Assembly (NCBI GenBank): GCA_043806035.1 | Contig: JAZDHK010000022.1 | Span: 1 to 13,511, forward strand | Length of the DNA: 13,511 nucleotides | Reading direction: 5' to 3' | Source of the DNA: an archaeon | Lineage (GTDB): Archaea > Nanobdellota > Nanobdellia > Woesearchaeales > UBA9642 | The notes under the pieces: generated by a model | What the model was told of the DNA's origin: nothing | The model's database searches: none | Seen by the model: the letters and a program-made list of their open reading frames with translations, nothing else | Shown: positions 1-10,565 of the stretch, in pieces | How positions within the stretch are numbered: the first letter of the stretch is position 1 | Layout of the letters: each line of letters opens with the position of its first letter | Translations under genes and position numbers: made by a program

Positions 1-129
1 CATCCTGAGAGTCTCGGGCAGCCCCGAGCGAAGCAATCCAAAAATGAGGCTAGTGCGTGAAAGCTCGTATGCGTGCACCTGCTTACACTGCTGTGCGGAG
101 CGGGATGCGAAAGAAATTCAGGATGAAGC
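1..129. mobile_element. MITE/REP-like element, copy 1 (truncated by window start; inverted relative to copy 2)
   Basis: Positions 1-129 are the exact reverse complement of 9072-9200. Ends in TIR TCAGGATGAAGC (118-129). Begins at CATCCTGA, missing the first 4 nt of the other TIR. Confidence 0.85.
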
Positions 130-145
130 AACAGGGAACGGAAGA

Positions 146-153
146 TTTATAAA
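146..153 (+). promoter_or_regulatory. Archaeal TATA box (TTTATAAA) with purine-rich BRE-like upstream sequence
   Basis: GGAAGA-TTTATAAA upstream of RBS GAGGTG (192-197) and the GTG start at 203. Confidence 0.7.
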
Positions 154-158
154 GAGGA

Positions 159-186
159 AGTATATACTAAGTATAAACGTATATAC
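159..186. promoter_or_regulatory. Putative operator: three GTATA(T/A)AC boxes
   Basis: Perfect palindrome AGTATATACT (159-168), GTATAAAC (171-178) and palindrome GTATATAC (179-186), all between the TATA box and RBS of an AbrB-domain gene. Confidence 0.5.
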
Positions 187-202
187 ATTATGAGGTGTTC
201 CT

Positions 203-694
203 GTGGAATCAAAGACCGTATCTGTCATTGGCGCACTGCACAAAGTGGGCAACTCCTACAGCGTTCGCATCCCCCGACACATTACCAATGAGCTGCACGC
301 CAAAGAAGGAGACATGCTCGCGCTCAAGATAGCGAAGATATCCCTGACGTTCAACGATAGCATCGCCGAGCAGTTCAGGGCAAAAGCACGCTGCATACGT
401 GCATTAGACCATTTCAGTGACGACAAAGTATACATCCTCGCACGGCTCTATTATGGCGAGGGCGTGAAACTCACGCAGGCCATCGAACAGAAGAAAGGAA
501 AACCGGGCACAGCGCGTATCATGCAGGTGAGCACGCTGGAAGCAGACGCACTTGCACAAATCAAGCAGGTGCAGCAAGACTATCTTGCAAAGATACGCAG
601 AGAATACGGCGATAAGCTCCTCAAGGAGTATCTTCATTTCAGGAAACACATCGAACCGGCCATGCGACAACAGCACAAACAGAATACTTTATGA
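203..694 (+). CDS. AbrB/MazE/SpoVT-family DNA-binding domain protein with helical C-terminal extension
   Basis: N-terminal LHKVGNSYSVRIPRHITNELHAKEGDMLAL fits the swapped-hairpin pattern (GNS-x-x-V-x-IP...GD). RBS GAGGTG lies 5 nt before the GTG. Confidence 0.8.
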   Translation: MESKTVSVIGALHKVGNSYSVRIPRHITNELHAKEGDMLALKIAKISLTFNDSIAEQFRAKARCIRALDHFSDDKVYILARLYYGEGVKLTQAIEQKKGKPGTARIMQVSTLEADALAQIKQVQQDYLAKIRREYGDKLLKEYLHFRKHIEPAMRQQHKQNTL

Positions 695-731
695 ATATAC
701 AAACGAGCAAACCGCTTAAGAGAAAGAGAAC

Positions 732-2606
732 ATGCAATACAAACAGTTTGAACTGGACATATTTCAAGAAGACGCCATCACGGCAATAGACAACAACCAC
801 AGCGTCGTCGTCTCCGCACCAACCGGCAGTGGGAAGACGCTCATCGCAGACTTCATCATCGACAAGGAACTCAAGACGGGCAAACGTGTCGTATACACTG
901 CCCCCATCAAGGCACTTTCTAATCAGAAGTTCAAGGACTTCTGCAAGGAATACGGTGAGCAGAACATCGGTCTCATGACGGGCGACACCGTCATCAATCC
1001 TCATGCACAGGTTGTCATTATGACGACAGAGATCTTCAGGAACATGGTGCTCATCAAGGACCCTGAAATCATGAATGTCAGCTATGTCATATTCGACGAA
1101 ATCCATTACATCAACGACATCGAGCGTGGCGTGGTGTGGGAGGAGAGCATCATCTTCGCTCCCGATCACGTTCGTTTTCTCTGCCTGAGCGCGACCATTC
1201 CTAACGCGAGGCAGTTCGCGAACTGGATTGAGTCAATCAAGCAGCACACCGTCGACGTGGTCATCCACACCAAGCGCCCCGTGCCGCTCGAGCAGCTCTT
1301 CTATGATGACGTGCTTGGTATCACCACACTGGACAGGATAGAGAAAGTACGTCACATCCCACGCGACAGACGGGATAAAAAAGACAAAGCGAGACGGCAG
1401 GAGCATATCCGGCTCATCGAGGATCTTGGCGAGGACAAACTGCCCTGCCTGTTCTTCTGCTTCTCACGCATGGCCTGCCAGCGCAACGCCGTCGAATTAG
1501 CAAAGAAATGGCAGTTGGCAGGAAAAAGCGATCCCGACACAACCAGAATGATCATCAACAAGTTACAGACGGCGCCTCCTGAAGTGGGCCAGCTCGAGAC
1601 CACGCGCATATTGCGAGAGTTGCTGCCTCGAGGCATCGGCTTCCACCATGCAGGGCTCATACCTGTACTCAAGGAGATCGTCGAGGAACTGTTCGGGCAG
1701 GGCAAGATCCGTGTCCTGTACGCGACAGAGACGTTCGCCGTGGGTATCAACATGCCTGCAAAGACGGTCTGCTTCGAGAGCTTCAGGAAATTCAATGGAC
1801 TCAACTTTACCCTGCTCACGTCCAAGGAATACTTCCAGATGGCAGGCAGGGCGGGAAGGAGAGGCATAGACACTATAGGCTATGCTATCGCCATGCTCGA
1901 CCGTGAGCGTGCAGAGCTCAAGGGCATACGGGAGCGCACGGACAGGGATGTCGAGCCGTTGGTGAGCCAGTTCAAGCTCTCCTACAACACCGTCCTGAAT
2001 CTTGTGCACAATCACGTGCCGGATGAGCGTAGGAAGATTCTGCAGCAGAGTTTCTACACGTACATCAATCGTAAGGAGACGATGATTCAGACGAGCTACA
2101 AGAAGAAGTATGAGAAGCTCAAAAAAATGGGGTATATCATCGATGACAAGCTGACGGATAAGGGTTTCTTCGCGAGCAGGATGTACTGTGACGAGCTTAT
2201 TTTTACTGAGCTGTTTGCTACGGATCTTTGGCAGGAATTCTCCGACTATCAGCTCACACTCATCCTTGCCTGCCTGGTCTTCGAGAGCAGGGAACGCACG
2301 GCGTTCAAGAACAAGCACGTGCACAGAGACGAGAAGTATGTGTACAAGCGGACGCGCTTCCTTATCGGAAAGCGGTCGGACAGCATCTATGACATTTCCG
2401 CGCTCATCTTTCCACTCTTCCAGCAAAAGACGTTCTTCGACCTGCTTGAGAATACGAACATGGCAGAAGGTGACATCATCCGTTTCTTCAATCAGATACT
2501 GGACAGGATTAACCAGGTCATTCGTGCGAGCGAAAATTCTGAATTGCGGCAGCGCATGAGGACATGTTTCGATCTCATGAGGATTATGCTCGAGAAGGTG
2601 TGCTAG
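732..2606 (+). CDS. Ski2/Mtr4/HelY-like DExH-box SF2 RNA helicase with DSHCT-like C-terminus
   Basis: Motifs: FQEDAI (Q), APTGSGKT (I), YTAPIKALSNQK (Ia), DEIH (II), LSAT (III), HHAG, ATETFAVGINMPA (V), QMAGRAGRRG (VI). C-terminal EGDIIR is DSHCT-like. Confidence 0.92.
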   Translation: MQYKQFELDIFQEDAITAIDNNHSVVVSAPTGSGKTLIADFIIDKELKTGKRVVYTAPIKALSNQKFKDFCKEYGEQNIGLMTGDTVINPHAQVVIMTTEIFRNMVLIKDPEIMNVSYVIFDEIHYINDIERGVVWEESIIFAPDHVRFLCLSATIPNARQFANWIESIKQHTVDVVIHTKRPVPLEQLFYDDVLGITTLDRIEKVRHIPRDRRDKKDKARRQEHIRLIEDLGEDKLPCLFFCFSRMACQRNAVELAKKWQLAGKSDPDTTRMIINKLQTAPPEVGQLETTRILRELLPRGIGFHHAGLIPVLKEIVEELFGQGKIRVLYATETFAVGINMPAKTVCFESFRKFNGLNFTLLTSKEYFQMAGRAGRRGIDTIGYAIAMLDRERAELKGIRERTDRDVEPLVSQFKLSYNTVLNLVHNHVPDERRKILQQSFYTYINRKETMIQTSYKKKYEKLKKMGYIIDDKLTDKGFFASRMYCDELIFTELFATDLWQEFSDYQLTLILACLVFESRERTAFKNKHVHRDEKYVYKRTRFLIGKRSDSIYDISALIFPLFQQKTFFDLLENTNMAEGDIIRFFNQILDRINQVIRASENSELRQRMRTCFDLMRIMLEKVC

Positions 2607-2964
2607 CGTCCTGCGTCTCGACGATCATGCTATCATGCTTGATCACGTACGGTCTGCCTGTTTGTTCATGGTATGCATGAGCGAGCTTGCTCATGTCCTG
2701 CAGCGCATCTGACACGAACAGTCGAATTTCAAGATCCCCTCTTCGCACGCTATCCCTGTTCGAGAATGCATCCTCCTCTATAGGAAGGGTGGTCAGATCA
2801 GCGATGGGAGTGTATGCCGTATAGCCGAAGCCGAGGAATTTCTTCTTTTCTTTTCGCGCGAGGATGTAGCTTTCCAGCCCGCCCAGTGCATCGTATGACG
2901 TGCGCACTGCCAAGTCAGGCAGATTTTCCTGGATGAGCTGTTCCCATTGCTGTTCGTTCATCAT
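2584..2964 (-). CDS. Hypothetical protein (126 aa)
   Basis: ORF with natural composition filling the gap. TTTAAA-type box about 25 nt upstream. 23-bp convergent overlap with the helicase. No family recognised. Confidence 0.6.
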   Translation of the reverse strand: MMNEQQWEQLIQENLPDLAVRTSYDALGGLESYILARKEKKKFLGFGYTAYTPIADLTTLPIEEDAFSNRDSVRRGDLEIRLFVSDALQDMSKLAHAYHEQTGRPYVIKHDSMIVETQDASTPSRA

Positions 2965-3017
2965 ACAGACAGAGAATGCGTGTTTCCTTTTAAACCTTAT
3001 GGCAAGAAAATACAGGT

Positions 3018-3368
3018 TTACTTGACGAGCATAAGAATGAACACGGCAAGATAGATGACAAAAAGGATAACGAGCACGAACTTGAGCGTCTGCAAGTTCT
3101 GGACCTTCTTGAGCTTCTTCTCTCTGTATTCCTTGTAGCGTTCGTGGAATGCTTCCATGAGCAGCTTCTCATGCTCGAATTTTGCACGCGCGGCAGGGAC
3201 TATCCTGACGAGTTTCCGTTCTTTGCCCTGTGGATGCTCATCCGCCCCTCCTGCGTTTGCGCTGAGCAGGACGTACTGTTCAAGCTTCTTAGACGAAGAT
3301 GATCGCTTTGTTTTCGGCGTTTTCTTTATTCGCCCCACTGGAGAACGCTTCCTCACACCCTTTTTCAT
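3018..3368 (-). CDS. Hypothetical tail-anchored membrane protein (basic N-terminus, coiled segment, C-terminal TM helix)
   Basis: Lys/Arg-rich N-terminus and hydrophobic C-terminus FVLVILFVIYLAVFILMLV. TTTATAAA at 3391-3398 is 22 nt upstream of the ATG. Confidence 0.72.
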   Translation of the reverse strand: MKKGVRKRSPVGRIKKTPKTKRSSSSKKLEQYVLLSANAGGADEHPQGKERKLVRIVPAARAKFEHEKLLMEAFHERYKEYREKKLKKVQNLQTLKFVLVILFVIYLAVFILMLVK

Positions 3369-3416
3369 GTCTTTCTTGCCGTAGAACTTATTTATAAATG
3401 TATTGATAAAGATGAC

Positions 3417-3534
3417 CTTGTTGAAAAGGTCCGCACAGCGAAGTCATCAGAGAGAACAGTTATTGCGATTGCCCTCGAGACGGGCAGCTGCTCACCAGAC
3501 AGTACGAAGCGCGGACTACAAAAAGTTCAACAAG
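3417..3534. repeat. Intergenic nested inverted-repeat element (possible second MITE/REP-like element)
   Basis: CTTGTTGAA (3417-3425) / TTCAACAAG (3526-3534); GTCCGC (3429-3434) / GCGGAC (3511-3516); hairpin TGCCC (3470-3474) / GGGCA (3482-3486). Single copy in the window. Confidence 0.4.
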
Positions 3535-3568
3535 ACTGATAATGGCAAGCAGAGCAATCCCAACAATA

Positions 3569-3602
3569 TTTAAATACGAGTTGTCCTTTGTAACAGGGGT
3601 GA
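3569..3602 (+). promoter_or_regulatory. TATA box (TTTAAATA, 3569-3576) and RBS (GGGGTGA, 3596-3602)
   Basis: Archaeal consensus motifs upstream of the ATG at 3607. Confidence 0.6.
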
Positions 3603-3606
3603 TAGC

Positions 3607-4140
3607 ATGAAAGCAGCACTACTTCTCGCATTAGGACTTACGTTGGCTCAACCTCTGGCAGCGCAGCACAGAGATCGTCACCACACACCACCGCCTCCGC
3701 CGCAGCATCAGAGACATGTGCCACCACCTGCATTTCATCCTCCTCACCATTACCCTCACTATCCGTACCACTACCGACACCTGCCAAGGCACCATACGGG
3801 ATTCTTCTTCCATCTGTACGTGTACCCTGAACCTGCCGCCCTACTCGTCGACCTTCCCTGGGCACAGTACCGCATCAGGTCAGGTGAGGCAATAACCCTG
3901 GACACCTATTTGACGGACAGCGCACTGCCTCGACGGGTAGCAATCATCGATGAACAAGAATATCCAGGACGTGACGAATACAATGACCCGTCATTCTGGG
4001 CTAACGTGGGTACGCTGTATCGTACACAAGAAAGAGAGGATAGGCAACTGTTCACCCGCATCGCAGGAACGGACAGAATTATCACCGCTCGTGATGACAG
4101 GAATCGTGACGGCATCATTGATATTTTTGATGCTCGATGA
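3607..4140 (+). CDS. Secreted His/Pro-rich protein with C-terminal Dx[DN]xDG (EF-hand/dockerin-like) Ca-binding loop
   Basis: Sec signal MKAALLLALGLTLAQPLAA|Q. 14 His and 13 Pro in residues 21-69. C-terminal DRNRDGIIDIFD. Strong RBS. Confidence 0.75.
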   Translation: MKAALLLALGLTLAQPLAAQHRDRHHTPPPPPQHQRHVPPPAFHPPHHYPHYPYHYRHLPRHHTGFFFHLYVYPEPAALLVDLPWAQYRIRSGEAITLDTYLTDSALPRRVAIIDEQEYPGRDEYNDPSFWANVGTLYRTQEREDRQLFTRIAGTDRIITARDDRNRDGIIDIFDAR

Positions 4141-4834
4141 TGTGCAGGACGTCGCTGCATGATGCAACAGGTGTGATGTTTCCTTCCCGCAGTTCTTGCT
4201 GCCAATGCTCGTCAGTGAACTGTTCATTACACCAGTTGTCTGCGGGGTTGATGTGCTGGTTGTAGGGCTGCTTGATGAGATAGACGGTTTTGCCGAGACG
4301 GGAGAGGTCATAGGCGTGCCGCGGATGGTCCTCGACGACGATCTCGACGTCTTGTCCTGTTTCTTCTTCGAGTTGTTGGATGGCGAGGACTTTGTCTTTC
4401 CTGAATCGTAGGAAGTCGTAAGGAAGGTTGTGCATGTGCAGCCAGGCAATCGTCTTTCCCGGACCGTCATTGTAGAAACGGTCAGGATTGCCTTCTTCTG
4501 CTCGGTGTGTGATGAGGCTGATGATGGATTCTTCCTCACGTAAGTAGTTGAGCAATGCTTCGCTGCCGTGCAGGGGTCGTGTCTCAAGAAAAAGATTTGC
4601 GTCGCCGAGCCTGCGCAGCAGTGCGTAGTATCCTCCTTTTCGTTCATAGCAGGCGAGCAGTTCGGGAAAGGGTTTGAGCGCTACACCTATATTGTAGGCG
4701 GTTGACTCAAAATGCAGAGAGGCGTAGCTGCCGTTCAGGCATGCCTTGAATTCTCTATTGAGCAAGGTCTCAAGTGCTGCATGAAAAGGGAAGAGCACAT
4801 CATCAATGTCCAGCATCACATGCCCAACGCGCAT
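4115..4834 (-). CDS. HAD-superfamily 5'(3')-deoxyribonucleotidase (NT5C-like)
   Basis: Motif I LDIDDVL, motif II ITHR, Lys in KDK, motif IV VEDHP, and PYNQ typical of NT5C-like enzymes. Start reassigned to ATG 4834 (MRVGHV), with TTTATA at 4861-4856 upstream. Confidence 0.8.
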   Translation of the reverse strand: MRVGHVMLDIDDVLFPFHAALETLLNREFKACLNGSYASLHFESTAYNIGVALKPFPELLACYERKGGYYALLRRLGDANLFLETRPLHGSEALLNYLREEESIISLITHRAEEGNPDRFYNDGPGKTIAWLHMHNLPYDFLRFRKDKVLAIQQLEEETGQDVEIVVEDHPRHAYDLSRLGKTVYLIKQPYNQHINPADNWCNEQFTDEHWQQELREGNITPVASCSDVLHIIEHQKYQ

Positions 4835-4944
4835 GATGATGAGAATGCGCGTTTCTATAAATACTTTATCAGCACAACTACTCAAATTTACCACTGTAGA
4901 ATAAACTATGTTTCAACTATTTTTCGTGGAGAGGAAACAACAGG

Positions 4945-4952
4945 TTTTTAAA
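4945..4952 (+). promoter_or_regulatory. TATA box of the permease gene
   Basis: TTTTTAAA 22 nt upstream of GTG 4975, consistent with a leaderless transcript. Confidence 0.55.
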
Positions 4953-4974
4953 GCACGAGGGCTGTTTGTTAAGC

Positions 4975-6879
4975 GTGGCAGAACTCAAGAAAAGCCTCGG
5001 TTACATCACCATCATCGCCCTTTCCATCACAGCACTTATCGGCACGGGCATATTCTTCGGGCCAGCACTTGCGGCAAAATATGCTGGCAAGGCGAGCATT
5101 TGGGCATGGATCATTCTCGGGTTTGTAAGCGTGTACGTCGCCACTTGTTTTGGAGAGCTCGCAAGCATGTATCCGAAAGCAGGAGGGGTGTATGAGTTCA
5201 GCAAACACGCCTACGGCAGATTCCCGAGCTTCCTCATCGGCTGGACGACGTGGATGGTAAGCAACATCACGACAACGCTCATCATCGTCGCTGCAGTGAA
5301 TTATCTCCTGCCCACAACCATTCCTTTCTACAAGCTCATTGCCTGCATCGCGCTCATCGTCGTCCTCAATATCGTGGCATTTCGTGGCATTGACGAGAGC
5401 AGTGCCGTGGTCATCTTCTTCAGCATCGTCATCATCGCCGTCATTTTGGGATTGGTCATTCCTGGAAGCACGAAGATCGTTGCAGAAAACATATTCCCCT
5501 TGACATTCACTAATCCGCTGTTGATCCTGCTTGCACTGTTCTTCATTGTCGAGACGTACTTCGGTTGGGAGAGCGCCACGTTCTTGGCAGAAGAGACGAA
5601 CAATGCTGAACGGGTCATCCCCAGAAGCCTCGTCATCTCCAGCATCATCGTCGCCGTGCTCGGTTTTGCGAGCGCGTTCGTGATGCTCGGCATCATCCCT
5701 GCGGGGCAGCTCGCACAGCTGGATGTTCCGTTGGCGAGCGTCGCGAACATCATCTTCGGCAGCCAGGGAGAACTGATCGTCCGCATCGGCGTCTTCCTTG
5801 CATTGATAGGCAGTGCTGCTGGAGGCATCGTGAGCCTGCCGAGACTCCTGCTCGCATTGGCGAGGGACAAGCTGTTCCTGCAGCAGTTGGCGGACATCCA
5901 CCCTGTGTACAAGACGCCGTACAAGGCGATCATCTTCCAGCTTATCGTGAGCCTGCTCATCTTGTTCATCGGTTTCGGGAATTACAGCACGCTACTGAGT
6001 TTGCTTGTTCCTCTCGCACTGATCATGTACATCACCGTGCTCTTTGCCGTCCCCCTGCTCAGGTGGAGGAAGCCACAGCATGAGCGTCCGTTCAGGGCAC
6101 CGCTCGGCAGCGTGCTTCCGCTCCTGGTCATCCTTTTGTATGCGGTGACGATTGCTGCGTGGTTGTTCCTCGATCCTGGCGCGATTGGTCTGTTCAAGAT
6201 TGCACTCTCGCTCATCTTTTTGGGCATTCCCGTGTATTTGCTGTTGCTCTTCCATTATGAGCCGGAGACGATCATCAAAGCGAATAATTCCATCGCGTAC
6301 ATGAATTTGTGGTTGGAGAATGCCCTGCTCCCGAAAAGCGTGAGGAAAGAACTGCTGGGTTACTTCAAGACGCTCCACCAGAAGACCGTACTTGAGTTTG
6401 GCACGGGAGTGGGCACGATGACCGTGCATCTCGCAGAAGAGGTAGGGCCTAAAGGAAGAATTATTGCAACAGAGCTCAGTGACAAGAACGTCGATATTCT
6501 CAAGAAGAGACTGGTGAAGAGGGGCATTTCCAATGTACAAGTCATCTATGACAAGCACCAAGTGAATAGGCTGCACCCAGACATCAAAAAGACAGACGTC
6601 GTTATTAGTGTGGGCATGCTGAGTTACATGCAGGACGTGAACAAAGTGCTCCGAGAAATCAATGCCGTGCTCCCGAAGAATGCAGAGATATGCTTTGCCG
6701 AATACGTCGATTTCTTCTGGGTTCTTCCTAACGTTGGCTGGTTGAGCAGTGAGCAAAAAATAAAAAAGACATTCAGGGATGCTGGCTTCGCCGTCCGGGT
6801 GAAGAAGAGAAAGGGCCTGCTCTGGAACTATCTTATCGTCTACGGCATTAAGTCAGAGGAGGACGTGCCGTACATCTAA
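4975..6879 (+). CDS. APC-family amino acid permease fused to a C-terminal class I SAM-dependent methyltransferase domain
   Basis: APC motifs: IGTGIF (TM1), ELASMYPKAGGVY, YFGWES (TM6), AEE..N.ER.IPR, PRLLLALARD, HPVYKTP, RPFRAP, with about 12 hydrophobic segments. Then VLEFGTGVG (SAM motif I, 6388-6414), GRIIATELS (acidic residue ending beta2) and DVVIS. Start placed at GTG 4975 (MAELKKSLG); the ORF track gives TTG 4966. Confidence 0.88.
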   Translation: MAELKKSLGYITIIALSITALIGTGIFFGPALAAKYAGKASIWAWIILGFVSVYVATCFGELASMYPKAGGVYEFSKHAYGRFPSFLIGWTTWMVSNITTTLIIVAAVNYLLPTTIPFYKLIACIALIVVLNIVAFRGIDESSAVVIFFSIVIIAVILGLVIPGSTKIVAENIFPLTFTNPLLILLALFFIVETYFGWESATFLAEETNNAERVIPRSLVISSIIVAVLGFASAFVMLGIIPAGQLAQLDVPLASVANIIFGSQGELIVRIGVFLALIGSAAGGIVSLPRLLLALARDKLFLQQLADIHPVYKTPYKAIIFQLIVSLLILFIGFGNYSTLLSLLVPLALIMYITVLFAVPLLRWRKPQHERPFRAPLGSVLPLLVILLYAVTIAAWLFLDPGAIGLFKIALSLIFLGIPVYLLLLFHYEPETIIKANNSIAYMNLWLENALLPKSVRKELLGYFKTLHQKTVLEFGTGVGTMTVHLAEEVGPKGRIIATELSDKNVDILKKRLVKRGISNVQVIYDKHQVNRLHPDIKKTDVVISVGMLSYMQDVNKVLREINAVLPKNAEICFAEYVDFFWVLPNVGWLSSEQKIKKTFRDAGFAVRVKKRKGLLWNYLIVYGIKSEEDVPYI

Positions 6880-6946
6880 ATCATCTACAGGGGCTAGTGA
6901 CTTTGAGATAATATTTTAGAACAATATACAACTTTCAACGAGAAAA

Positions 6947-6954
6947 TTTATAAA
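6947..6954 (+). promoter_or_regulatory. TATA box of the lrp - Ntn hydrolase - fic unit
   Basis: GAGAAAA-TTTATAAA 22 nt upstream of ATG 6977. Confidence 0.65.
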
Positions 6955-6976
6955 TAACTGAATATCATGCAATTCT

Positions 6977-7426
6977 ATGAAGAACATCGCCCCAGACCTG
7001 TTGCGTCTTTTCAGGGAGGGGTACTGCACGCCGCAAATAGCAAGAATAGCGCGAAAGCTCAAGGAGCCCTCAACGACCATACACTACAATATCAAGAAGC
7101 TCGAGAGAGAAGGCGTCATCAGGACGTACAAGGCAGTCCTCGACCACAGTAAGATCGAGGAAGGGTTCTGCGTGCACATCCTCATCAACCTCTCTCCCGA
7201 CGAGTATGGCGACCCGGAGCGGCTGGCAAAAGACATTGCCAAGCATCCTCGGGTGGAGAGCGTGGACATCTGCACGGGAGATTGGGAGCTGCTCGTCAAG
7301 ACACGCGCCAAGGACCAAGAGGACTACTTTGCATTCGTCAAACAAGTGCTCTCGAAGAAAGGCATCGCCCACGTCAAGAGCATCATTTCCCTGAAACAAG
7401 TGAAGAGCGAGTTCACCACACCATGA
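6977..7426 (+). CDS. Lrp/AsnC family transcriptional regulator
   Basis: HTH IARIARKLKEPSTTIHYNIKKLEREGVI followed by a RAM domain (HPRVESVDICTGDWELLVK). Confidence 0.92.
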   Translation: MKNIAPDLLRLFREGYCTPQIARIARKLKEPSTTIHYNIKKLEREGVIRTYKAVLDHSKIEEGFCVHILINLSPDEYGDPERLAKDIAKHPRVESVDICTGDWELLVKTRAKDQEDYFAFVKQVLSKKGIAHVKSIISLKQVKSEFTTP

Positions 7427-8373
7427 GACGCGTGTCGCTCATCCTTATCGTGCTGCTTCTTCCCGCAGTTTTGGCCATAGACCATAACTGCAGGATGTGG
7501 GCTGCCGTCGGCAACACGCTCGACGCTCAGCAACAGCTGCTCGAGGGAGGGCACAGCCTCAAACAACTCGGTCAGTATAATAGGAATGGGTGGGGCATGG
7601 TCAGCTACACCAATCAAACAAATGTCTATCGAGGAATCCTGCCTGCTTCCGAGGACACTGCCTTTGACAACGCAGCCATGAACATTTCAGGGAATATCAT
7701 CATCGCCCACGTCCGTGCGTGCAGCTCGGGTTGCTGTGACATCGCAGACCCGCATCCCTTCGTCAAAACGTTCAGAGGAAAGACGTGGAGCCTCGCGCAT
7801 AACGGCAACATAAACAAGGACGTACTGTTCAAGCTAATCGATGATGCCTACTTGCAGGACCATCCCGTTCAAACCTGTCCTGACAATCCCATCGACAGCG
7901 AGCTCTACTTCATCTATCTCGAGAAGCTCATCGAAGAAACGAACGGGAACGTTGAAGACGCGATCTTTCAGGCAACGACGACGCTCATGCAGTACGGGCA
8001 ATCAACCTTGAACATACTGTTCAGCGACGGCACTACCCTCTGGGCATACAAGCAAGGTAACACACTCTATTACACGTATGACATACGGCAAGGCAAGACT
8101 TTCGTCGCATCAGAGCCGTTAAATTCTGGTTGGACCGCTCTTGAGGATGGACAGCTGCTCATCATCAGAGAGGGGGAATTTCCTCTTATCATGGACACCC
8201 AAGAACGTCCTCCCGCTCCTGAGCCAAGCACGCCGATTGTCGAGCAGAGTATTGATGACGCGACAAAGAACATCATCATGATCACCATGGTTTGTGTGAT
8301 GCTGCTGATGCTCATCCTCATGATCATCTTCATGATTAACTCAAGAGTAGAAACACATAAAAAGCCGCGTTGA
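7423..8373 (+). CDS. Exported, C-terminally anchored class II glutamine amidotransferase-like Ntn hydrolase (EgtC/DUG3/YafJ-like)
   Basis: Start reassigned to ATG 7423 (ATGA overlap with the lrp stop). Signal peptide, then CRM, NGWG, AHVR, HPF, AHNG, DSE, LNILFSDG and VASEPL motifs. Pro-rich linker, C-terminal TM helix and basic tail. Confidence 0.85.
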   Translation: MRRVSLILIVLLLPAVLAIDHNCRMWAAVGNTLDAQQQLLEGGHSLKQLGQYNRNGWGMVSYTNQTNVYRGILPASEDTAFDNAAMNISGNIIIAHVRACSSGCCDIADPHPFVKTFRGKTWSLAHNGNINKDVLFKLIDDAYLQDHPVQTCPDNPIDSELYFIYLEKLIEETNGNVEDAIFQATTTLMQYGQSTLNILFSDGTTLWAYKQGNTLYYTYDIRQGKTFVASEPLNSGWTALEDGQLLIIREGEFPLIMDTQERPPAPEPSTPIVEQSIDDATKNIIMITMVCVMLLMLILMIIFMINSRVETHKKPR

Positions 8374-8385
8374 TTTCTCTTTTGC

Positions 8386-9030
8386 ATGTTCGAGACAAAT
8401 TACGTTCCACAACGGTTCAACATACCTGCAATCACGGAAGCATTGCTGACTGTGAAGGAGGACATAGCAGGGCTTCGGAAAGATCCGGAACGGCACGCTC
8501 ACGACTTCCGCAATGGCATCGTCATCGACCGGTTCGTGCAGGGCTTCTCGTACGTCGATTATCTGATTACGCAGGACAAGAATCCGCTGAAAGACCACTA
8601 TCACATCTATGAGCTGGACAAGATCATCGTGTATGGGAATGACTTCCAGGAGTGGATGCGTCACTTCGAGGTGATTGAGAGCGTTCGTGCCCAATTCTCC
8701 TCACGAATTGCCAAGATTGGACAGTACGCACAAAACAAAAATCCGTTCATGCGCGCAGCACAGGCCTTCTCGTACACGTGCTCAAAACCTTTGCCTTTCC
8801 TCGACGGGAACATGCGGACGGCGCTGCTTCTCGCAAATTACGTTCTAGCCAAAGCGGACCTGCCTCCATTCGTTCCCCAAAAAGAGAACGCACGCAACTA
8901 CTTCGACCAAACTGCTGACTTCGAACACATGCACAAACGCAATCCCATCTTGAGGGTACGCATGCACTTGCAGGAATGCGTGCTTGCATTCATGTTCGAG
9001 AAGTCCTCATCATCAGCTTATCTGAAGTGA
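8386..9030 (+). CDS. Fic/Doc-domain protein with degenerate active-site motif
   Basis: LPFLDGNMRTALLLANYVL (from 8791) versus consensus HPFxDGNGRxxR, followed by the typical LPPF segment. Confidence 0.75.
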   Translation: MFETNYVPQRFNIPAITEALLTVKEDIAGLRKDPERHAHDFRNGIVIDRFVQGFSYVDYLITQDKNPLKDHYHIYELDKIIVYGNDFQEWMRHFEVIESVRAQFSSRIAKIGQYAQNKNPFMRAAQAFSYTCSKPLPFLDGNMRTALLLANYVLAKADLPPFVPQKENARNYFDQTADFEHMHKRNPILRVRMHLQECVLAFMFEKSSSSAYLK

Positions 9031-9071
9031 ACGCAACTCAGCCATTTCTGAAAACAGCCTATCATTTTCCG

Positions 9072-9204
9072 GCTTCATCCTGAATTTCTTTCGCATCCCG
9101 CTCCGCACAGCAGTGTAAGCAGGTGCACGCATACGAGCTTTCACGCACTAGCCTCATTTTTGGATTGCTTCGCTCGGGGCTGCCCGAGACTCTCAGGATG
9201 AAGC
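9072..9204. mobile_element. MITE/REP-like element, copy 2 (complete, 133 bp, 12-bp perfect TIRs)
   Basis: GCTTCATCCTGA (9072-9083) / TCAGGATGAAGC (9193-9204), 13 bp here if the flanking G/C is included. Identical inverted copy at 1-129. Intergenic, no ORF. No clear target-site duplication seen. Confidence 0.85.
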
Positions 9205-9220
9205 CATCGTTTCCATAAAA

Positions 9221-9228
9221 TTTATAAG
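9221..9228 (+). promoter_or_regulatory. TATA box of aspS
   Basis: AAAA-TTTATAAG upstream of ATG 9249/9261. Confidence 0.65.
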
Positions 9229-9260
9229 CAATTCTTCGCTGCGCAGTAATGGGTGAATGT

Positions 9261-10565
9261 ATGAGAACGCTGATCGAGGACGTGTACGCACGTAAAGGAA
9301 CGTCTGTCCAGCTCCAAGGCTGGATTCAGGAAATCAGGAACTTGAGCAAGGTCAAGTTCGTCATTCTCAGGGATAGGACGGGAGACATGCAGTGTATTGC
9401 ACTCAAAGGCAAAACGCCTGACGCCGTGTTCGAAAGCATCGCCAAACTCACGAAGGAAAGCGTCATATCCCTCACGGGACAAGTCACGGAGAACAAGGAA
9501 TCCCGTTGGGGCGTCGAAATACTCATCACGGACATCAGCGTCATCAATGAGTCTGCAGCGGTCCTCCCCATCGACAACACGGACAAGAGCAAGACCGAGA
9601 TCGAGAAGCGGCTCGACTACCGCTTCCTCGACACGAGAAACAAGAAAGTGCACACCATTTTCAGCATACGGAGCAAGATTGCCCGCATCCTCACCGATTT
9701 CTTCGATGAAGAAAAATTCACGAACATCAACACGCCAAAAATAACGCGGATAGGCGTAGAGTCAGGAGCATCGCTCTTTGAAGTGAATTACTTCGGCGAT
9801 TCCGCCTACCTGAGCCAGAGCCCGCAGATCTATAAGCAAATGTTTGTAGCGGGAGGATTTGAGCGCGTTTTCGAGCTCGGGGTCGTCTTCAGAGCAGAGA
9901 ATTCCAACACGACGAGGCATCTCACTGAGTTTACGGGCATTGATTTTGAGATGGGCTTCATCAATGACTTCACCGACGTCATGGACATGATCGAGAAGAT
10001 GATGCTGACCCTCCTCCGACGGCTCAAAGCAGAGAGTGCAGAGCAGCTTGCTCTCCTGAACATTACGCTGGACATTCCCGAGCACGTCCCGCGCATCACC
10101 ATGCGAGAGGCAAAAGACTATCTGAGAGCAAAGGGTAAGATCCTGTCGGAAGATGATGATTTTGACGCGGAAGCCGAACGGATGGTCGGCGAGTGGGTCA
10201 AGGAAAAGTACACGTCTGATCTTGTCTTCATAACCCATTATCCCTGGAAGGTGCGACCGTTCTATCACATGCGGACAGAAGGCAAGCCGGATGAGACAAA
10301 AAGCTTCGACATGCTCTATCGTGGTGTAGAAATCGCGACAGGAGCGCAGCGAGAGCATCGTCTCGACGTGTTGCAGGCGCAGGCGGAAGAGAAAGGCGTA
10401 AACTTTGAGGAGATGGAAGCGTACGCGAACATCTTCAAGTACGGCATCCCCCCTCATGGAGGCGTTGGTTTTGGCCTGGACAGGATAACGCAGCGGCTGC
10501 TTGACATCGGCAACATACGCGAGGTTGTGCTCTTGCCTCGAGATCCAAAGCGGGTGAGCCCTTAA
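9261..10565 (+). CDS. aspS: Aspartate--tRNA ligase, archaeal/eukaryotic type
   Basis: OB-fold GWIQEIRNL...FVILRD, RLDYRFLD, YLSQSPQIYKQ, motif 2 FRAENSNTTRHLTEF, GAQREH, motif 3 PPHGGVGFGLDR. RBS GGGTGA (9251-9256) favours ATG 9261; ATG 9249 is also possible. Confidence 0.96.
   Translation: MRTLIEDVYARKGTSVQLQGWIQEIRNLSKVKFVILRDRTGDMQCIALKGKTPDAVFESIAKLTKESVISLTGQVTENKESRWGVEILITDISVINESAAVLPIDNTDKSKTEIEKRLDYRFLDTRNKKVHTIFSIRSKIARILTDFFDEEKFTNINTPKITRIGVESGASLFEVNYFGDSAYLSQSPQIYKQMFVAGGFERVFELGVVFRAENSNTTRHLTEFTGIDFEMGFINDFTDVMDMIEKMMLTLLRRLKAESAEQLALLNITLDIPEHVPRITMREAKDYLRAKGKILSEDDDFDAEAERMVGEWVKEKYTSDLVFITHYPWKVRPFYHMRTEGKPDETKSFDMLYRGVEIATGAQREHRLDVLQAQAEEKGVNFEEMEAYANIFKYGIPPHGGVGFGLDRITQRLLDIGNIREVVLLPRDPKRVSP

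Follow-up and report, generated by a model that had tools for sequence, protein, structure and literature searches.

The stretch of DNA analyzed here, referred to below as the window, is 13,511 nt long and constitutes the whole of contig C22 in an archaeal assembly of 1.5 Mb. The host genome encodes one TFB and one TBP, and at least 84% of it is coding, as estimated with a crude gene caller. Positions 1-129 of the window are a perfect reverse-complement match to positions 9072-9200, and these sequences belong to two copies of a short repeat (MITE A). A member of a second family (MITE B) lies between them. The features that matter for what follows are listed here.

1..130, minus strand: MITE A copy 1; its last 5 nt are beyond the contig start, on contig C10 (from the C10 overlap)
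131..139, plus strand: promoter-side half of the 9-bp TSD of copy 1, decayed (6/9 match to the C10 side)
140..145, plus strand: BRE-like hexamer RNAANN on the copy 1 side (genome promoter matrix)
146..153, plus strand: TATA box downstream of copy 1 (BRE plus TATA, 14.7 bits)
203..694, plus strand: host gene of the copy 1 promoter, with a weak, sub-cut-off match to a MazE/AbrB-type N terminus
3018..3368, minus strand: host ORF of 116 aa with no family match, downstream of the minus-strand TATA box
3391..3398, minus strand: TATA box near MITE B, 15 nt from the MITE B end (13.7 bits)
3399..3404, minus strand: BRE-like hexamer near MITE B (promoter matrix)
3405..3413, plus strand: left TSD of MITE B, 9 bp (6/9 match to 3538-3546)
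3414..3537, plus strand: MITE B copy, with its own TIR and an interior homologous to that of A but inverted
9061..9070, plus strand: left TSD of copy 2 (against 9206-9214, 5/9 ungapped and 8/9 with a 1-nt indel)
9071..9205, plus strand: MITE A copy 2, 135 bp, with perfect 13-bp TIRs and an imperfect stem
9206..9214, plus strand: promoter-side TSD of copy 2
9215..9220, plus strand: BRE-like hexamer on the copy 2 side (genome promoter matrix)
9221..9228, plus strand: TATA box downstream of copy 2 (12.0 bits)
9249..10565, plus strand: aspartate-tRNA(Asn) ligase gene of the copy 2 promoter (NF003483, above cut-off; start at 9249 or 9261)

The window also carries unrelated genes, namely a Ski2-like DEAD/DSHCT helicase (732-2606) and a small protein (8386-9030) with a Fic/DOC match above the Pfam cut-off that is unconnected to the insertion finding.

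Both repeats are MITEs, i.e., non-autonomous DNA transposons. An iterated nhmmer census over the genome contigs recovered 14 full copies of family A (135 bp) plus one partial copy, and nine copies of family B (123 bp), of which 3414-3537 is the window member. The partial A copy, on contig C19 (39% identity), was removed ahead of all counts. The TIRs of A are perfect over 13 bp and continue into an imperfect stem (copy 9071-9205). Those of B are different, and the interiors of the two families are homologous but oppositely oriented. Short GC-GNA-GC motifs are retained in both interiors, and we take these to be of the kind that forms very stable DNA mini-hairpins. Among the 22 MITE copies with both flanks available, the 9-bp TSD is perfect in four and matches at 8/9 positions in three; the TSDs of the remaining copies, both A copies of the window included, are decayed or shifted. 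No ORF of at least 60 aa lies inside 9071-9205. A known RNA family was considered for MITE A and B and dropped, since an Rfam search of the window returned no match; the TIR stem makes up most of the consensus fold, and the covariation term is only -0.45.

Regarding possible parents, the left and right ends of two metagenomic IS5-like elements (L264 and L328) match the left and right ends, respectively, of MITE A, and the ends of MITE B resemble those of two other elements (L067 and L069). A de novo TIR+TSD scan of the assembly found no IS with exactly the ends of MITE A, and a search of 60 related genomes did not find the MITE A sequence.

Some aspects of the A copies concern their history and assembly. 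Three of them (1-130, 9071-9205, and C2:8-142) share 98%-100% identity despite decayed TSDs; more diverged A copies retain perfect TSDs, and the nearest neighbors of A copies switch block by block along the element. This mosaic of near-identical copies suggests gene conversion between copies or an assembly consensus. Exchanging the TSD halves of the window's two A copies, as checked by eye, did not restore the match. The segment 131-9070 is flanked by two identical inverted A copies, and one contig from sequencing run X2 starts in the sequence beside copy 1, crosses the element, and ends in that beside copy 2, as an inversion of 131-9070 would give; this join could equally well be a low-depth graph artefact. 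At window position 9070, runs X1 and X3 have a loose end, where the element is flanked by sequence with a 14-base motif that is missing from the assembly. This represents a further copy, located either elsewhere in the community or in sequence that was left unassembled. Empty alleles were not seen: contigs of the four DNA runs covering 2900-9700 have no joint that skips an element.

The preliminary description of this DNA had pointed to two 12-mers, each separated by a 16-nt spacer from a TTTATAA box, with the two A copies turning opposite ends toward it. All of these are present where it had placed them, and the ends do face the boxes in that way. The 12-mers are indeed located at element ends, although the element extends 1 base further on each side (9071-9205, 135 bp). 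The spacer has the length given, yet is not arbitrary, as it comprises the terminal base of the element, the 9-bp TSD, and the 6-nt BRE. The inverted-repeat element beside the minus-strand TATA box also stands, but its limits are 3414-3537 (not 3417-3534) and its distance is exactly 15 nt (not 15-18 nt).

A promoter matrix was built from upstream regions (321 sites) after removal of all elements. Its motif is RNAANN-TTTATAAA, i.e., BRE plus TATA. The matrix was scored outward from element ends with a threshold of 8 bits, and 13 of the 23 MITE copies (A, 9/14; B, 4/9) have a BRE-TATA match exactly 15 nt away, while 19 (A, 13/14; B, 6/9) have one at 15-17 nt. Random intergenic positions reach the threshold in 0.48% of cases at 15 nt and in 1.28% at 15-17 nt. 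If the three window copies are set aside, the counts are 10/20 and 16/20, and the binomial p for these 20 copies, taken as independent, is about 1e-18. The distance plot over genomic copies against random intergenic positions, which the preliminary description had proposed, therefore displays a sharp peak and not a broad spread, and the 15-nt spacing of the MITE copies is not due to chance. Either MITE end may face the promoter.

The logo of the sites reproduces the BRE adenines and the TATA columns seen in the promoter matrix, itself trained independently; the TSD and the far side carry almost no information. At 19 of the 25 flagged sites, the box is followed after 29-60 nt by a called sense start; at five of the other six, a sense ORF was overlooked or started late by the crude caller, and the last has its called start 12 nt ahead of the box. 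Among intergenic matrix sites overall, 684 of 1091 are accompanied by a sense start. Given these two proportions, the flagged sites are plausible promoters, with no clear preference for them over other motif matches. Insertions lie upstream of the BRE, at about 45 nt or more from the start codons, and leave BRE, TATA, and gene intact in either orientation. Six copies (C1:64397-64530, C19:15511-15633, C23:30254-30376, C23:51392-51514, C27:31013-31147, and window 3414-3537) split divergent promoter pairs, and the second TATA at such pairs is at a variable distance (17-31 nt).

Full elements of the genome were sought by the de novo TIR+TSD scan combined with a Pfam search. There are two IS5-like elements (on contigs C14 and C15), one ISNCY-like element (C33), and one IS1182. 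The three intact, TSD-bounded, transposase-bearing elements on C14, C15, and C33 have BRE-TATA matches of 13.8, 13.0, and 11.7 bits, respectively, at 15 nt. The IS1182, on contig C1 (L211), sits at the center of an imperfect palindrome and has no clear TSD, which amounts to another target rule within this one genome. The proteins of the C14 and C15 elements match PF01609 (DDE_Tnp_1) above cut-off, and no match to the Mutator family was found in the DDE_Tnp_1 proteins of elements with matching ends. The IS5-like transposase has about 276 aa and an invariant triad (D108, D178, E230). It is predicted to be a compact DDE protein (pLDDT 85) whose fold weakly matches DDE transposases, and the predicted structure contains no evident extra targeting domain. 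The C33 protein has no Pfam match and resembles ISNCY/ISFac3 clusters; no plasmid match was found for it, and no relatives of these elements were found on viral contigs. The IS5-like and ISNCY-like transposases are distant from each other (hhalign probability 29%), whereas the IS5-like proteins are collinear with haloarchaeal transposases (hhalign 99.7%). A transposase tree built with a quick method leaves a polytomy among the deep branches.

We then have the question of whether the register extends beyond this genome. Relatives were sampled from genomes of the same phylum and from metagenomes; loci of G490 and G491 (same phylum) were counted once, and the unpublished genome G456 was excluded from every count. 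For the IS5-like genomic loci, ends were found in 48 of 93, and dropping four unclean cases left 44, one of which is the host's own. The TSD-verified insertions outside the genome number 54 (43 IS5-like, five ISNCY-like, and six metagenomic), and 45 of them have a match of at least 8 bits at TSD+6 on one side. A genome with six identical copies of one element (G450) has the box in register at all six. The ISNCY-like elements score best at 15 nt in 6/6 cases, five of which reach at least 8 bits. Metagenome contigs were scored per end, as most have unmatched flanks, probably from chimeric joins. There, 46 of 104 ends (23 left and 23 right) have at least 8 bits at 15 nt, with at most four at any other distance, and 46/104 is near the ceiling expected if one end in two faces a promoter. 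Some of the metagenomic ends (L276, L299, and L312) carry a second inverted TIR of their own family within about 10 nt, as if from reinsertion at an occupied promoter or from hairpin joints.

The signal is not uniform among the elements compared. A 13-copy IS of genome G217 is looser (3/22 ends with at least 8 bits, and several weak TATA-like sites in register). Haloarchaeal plasmid IS5 elements, which have similar TIRs and 8-bp TSDs, gave 0/11 matrix matches and one loose TATA-like word at 14 nt (1/11), in a small set scored with a matrix from another lineage. IS1182 elements of the same phylum showed 0/3 at 15 nt (ends were found in 3 of 16 loci), one Paracoccus element gave no register signal, and a single Methanomethylovorans element has no clear TSD. 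Nevertheless, promoter-registered insertion is real and general in the host lineage, and the sharp peak in both the genome and its relatives strongly supports the claim that the promoter sets the insertion point, just upstream of the BRE.

The best position of the box depends on the length of the TSD. Of nine cases with 8-bp TSDs, eight have their best box at 14 nt, and of 34 with 9-bp TSDs, 27 have it at 15 nt (Fisher p=1.2e-6, a value overstated by kinship, because the comparison spans related lineages and the events are not independent). As the distance shifts with TSD length, the fixed quantity is the 6 bp (the BRE) from the promoter-side cut to the TATA box. This bears directly on a second suggestion of the preliminary description, that the TIR acts as a portable site for an upstream regulator; selection would then hold it at a fixed distance from the TATA box. 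The mosaic, possibly homogenized copies and some compensated changes in the TIRs do hint at constraint on the element. However, the distance tracks the TSD and not the TIR, many unlike TIRs and intact autonomous IS occur in one register, and the genes served are unrelated, so that we now consider the regulator reading very improbable.

Another possibility is that insertion is loosely intergenic or AT-biased, and that selection subsequently spared only those copies that lie just upstream of a BRE. The gene density of the genome (84% coding, by the crude caller) is in keeping with this, as are the many old MITE copies with decayed TSDs and the far looser pattern of the recently expanded G217 IS. 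Yet positions further upstream should also be tolerable, so selection could not yield a peak at a single base such as that of the metagenome ends, and it leaves the shift with TSD length unexplained. Single-base precision and the TSD-linked shift together argue against selection alone. The identical copies of G450, all in register, and the IS1182 elements of the same phylum, which lack the register, also count against it. Overall, we judge such an origin improbable, although slightly less so than the regulator site.

More serious is the possibility that the transposase itself reads the sequence or shape of the BRE-TATA through one subunit, in an asymmetric capture that involves no host factor. 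The motif lies 6-14 bp from the cut, probably within reach of the transposase, and the targeting lineages would need no added domain. Furthermore, the absence of signal in haloarchaea could stem from GC-rich, motif-poor plasmid DNA. A dimer that reads DNA would normally favor both flanks, however, and no insertion of the 54 has at least 5 bits on both sides, the far side being at its own background (p=0.45). The one-sided motif thus argues against symmetric readout by a dimer. Direct readout also sits less easily with a logo in which every column, those of the BRE among them, agrees with the host promoter matrix, and with a register common to two distant transposase families. We regard it as unlikely, but as the alternative most deserving of attention.

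The reading that we prefer, with a probability of about 0.62, is that the transpososome is positioned by promoter-bound TBP-TFB, through a contact that we infer. The preliminary description had named bound TBP/TFB as the guide, and it does emerge as the most likely cause, the contact itself being the conjectural part. Two distant DDE families (IS5-like and ISNCY-like) have one common register. The upstream BRE is contacted by the second helix-turn-helix (HTH2) of TFB (PMC8131849), which would place the promoter-side cut at the edge of the TFB footprint. The transpososome would be set by the TBP-TFB complex sitting on the promoter, most plausibly by abutting or touching the C-terminal helix-turn-helix of TFB on the BRE. 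One active site would then cut right beside TFB at an invariant spot, and the second would cut 8 or 9 bp upstream of that. The gain for the element would be a safe harbor in a genome that is so largely coding. A predicted complex of the TFB core and the transposase scored 0.00, which counts neither for nor against contact. Several points weigh against TBP-TFB as the guide. The collinear haloarchaeal relatives lack the signal even though their hosts have TBP and TFB, and the compact transposase has no obvious additional domain for targeting. In addition, true promoters are not clearly favored over other intergenic motif matches, and the loose G217 IS indicates that later selection may add strength to the register elsewhere.

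If TBP-TFB does guide these insertions, this would account for the persistence of DNA transposons in gene-dense DPANN genomes. In practical terms, the insertions are base-exact promoter markers in uncultured archaea, and they could be developed into a non-disruptive, promoter-adjacent insertion tool. The model of the TnGBS type would become directly testable with three small purified proteins.

Base-precise targeting guided by host factors is so far a property of a few bacterial and eukaryotic elements. Promoter-targeted transposition is thus already known, and the archaeal case is apparently undescribed: no report of TATA-registered insertion in archaea was found in the literature searched, which included parts of PMC10969869 and PMC9208149. 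As far as the section of PMC10969869 used here extends, prokaryotic MITEs (Correia, Sulfolobus SM1-4, MITEAba12) have an AT-rich intergenic or upstream-of-gene location. They are like MITE A and B in being short, non-coding, TIR/TSD-bounded, multicopy, intergenic, and hairpin-forming, but that section does not describe for them a single-base register to a promoter element.

The elements studied here resemble the IS5 family (haloarchaeal ISHvo2/ISHla2 and Paracoccus ISPpa3) in having one DDE_Tnp_1 ORF, a length of 0.9-1.2 kb, TIRs starting GGC or TGC, and a TSD of 8-9 bp. They differ in that the best matches of the C14 and C15 proteins to NF033579 (119 and 109 bits) are below the model cut-off of 140, and in that none of the 11 haloarchaeal members has a TATA at TSD+6. 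ISH1 and IS903 are presumably the subgroup names for the IS5 family elements compared.

The closest geometry is found in bacteria. According to PMC3942029, TnGBS, ISLre2, and ISKra4 elements have their insertion points on the upstream side of the sigma-A -35, at a distance of 15-17 bp with a peak at 16, and a contact between the TnGBS transposase and the initiation complex was proposed by analogy to Ty3. The same paper reports insertion in both orientations for those ISKra4 elements whose IRs are near-perfect and, for archaeal ISH6, mentions only an AT-rich duplicated motif. The elements described here share with p-MULT 3/4 (TnGBS ICEs, ISLre2, ISKra4), as presented there, a DDE transposase and a short, constant spacing between the insertion and the core promoter element downstream of it, and with ISKra4 the two-orientation insertion. 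In contrast, p-MULT 3/4 have bacterial Mutator-type transposases and a sigma-A target, p-MULT 3 being oriented, whereas the archaeal elements have DDE_Tnp_1 (IS5-like) and ISNCY-like transposases and a BRE-TATA target. The archaeal elements therefore work like, but are not members of, p-MULT 3/4, as both transposase type and target differ.

The analogy to Ty3 drawn in the preliminary description holds only loosely. The integration point of Ty3 is the Pol III start site, and TBP and Brf1 are required, as shown in vitro (PMC5911963). Position-specific integration is common to both, as is the use of TBP with a TFIIB-family factor, for the archaeal elements presumably TBP-TFB. But Ty3 belongs to the LTR retrotransposons and enters at the start site, which lies downstream of where TBP binds, whereas the archaeal elements are DNA transposons that insert upstream of the BRE of protein-coding genes. 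We lean slightly toward a broader view, in which archaeal DNA transposons would in general use promoter-bound TBP-TFB as their landing pad, with at least two distant DDE families docking on TFB and cutting 6 bp upstream of the TATA box. This would be the archaeal counterpart of sigma-A and TFIIIB targeting, carried out by a minimal integrase (about 280 aa) guided by a basal factor. If true, the sigma-A and TFIIIB cases would be joined via the domain that uses TBP and TFB.
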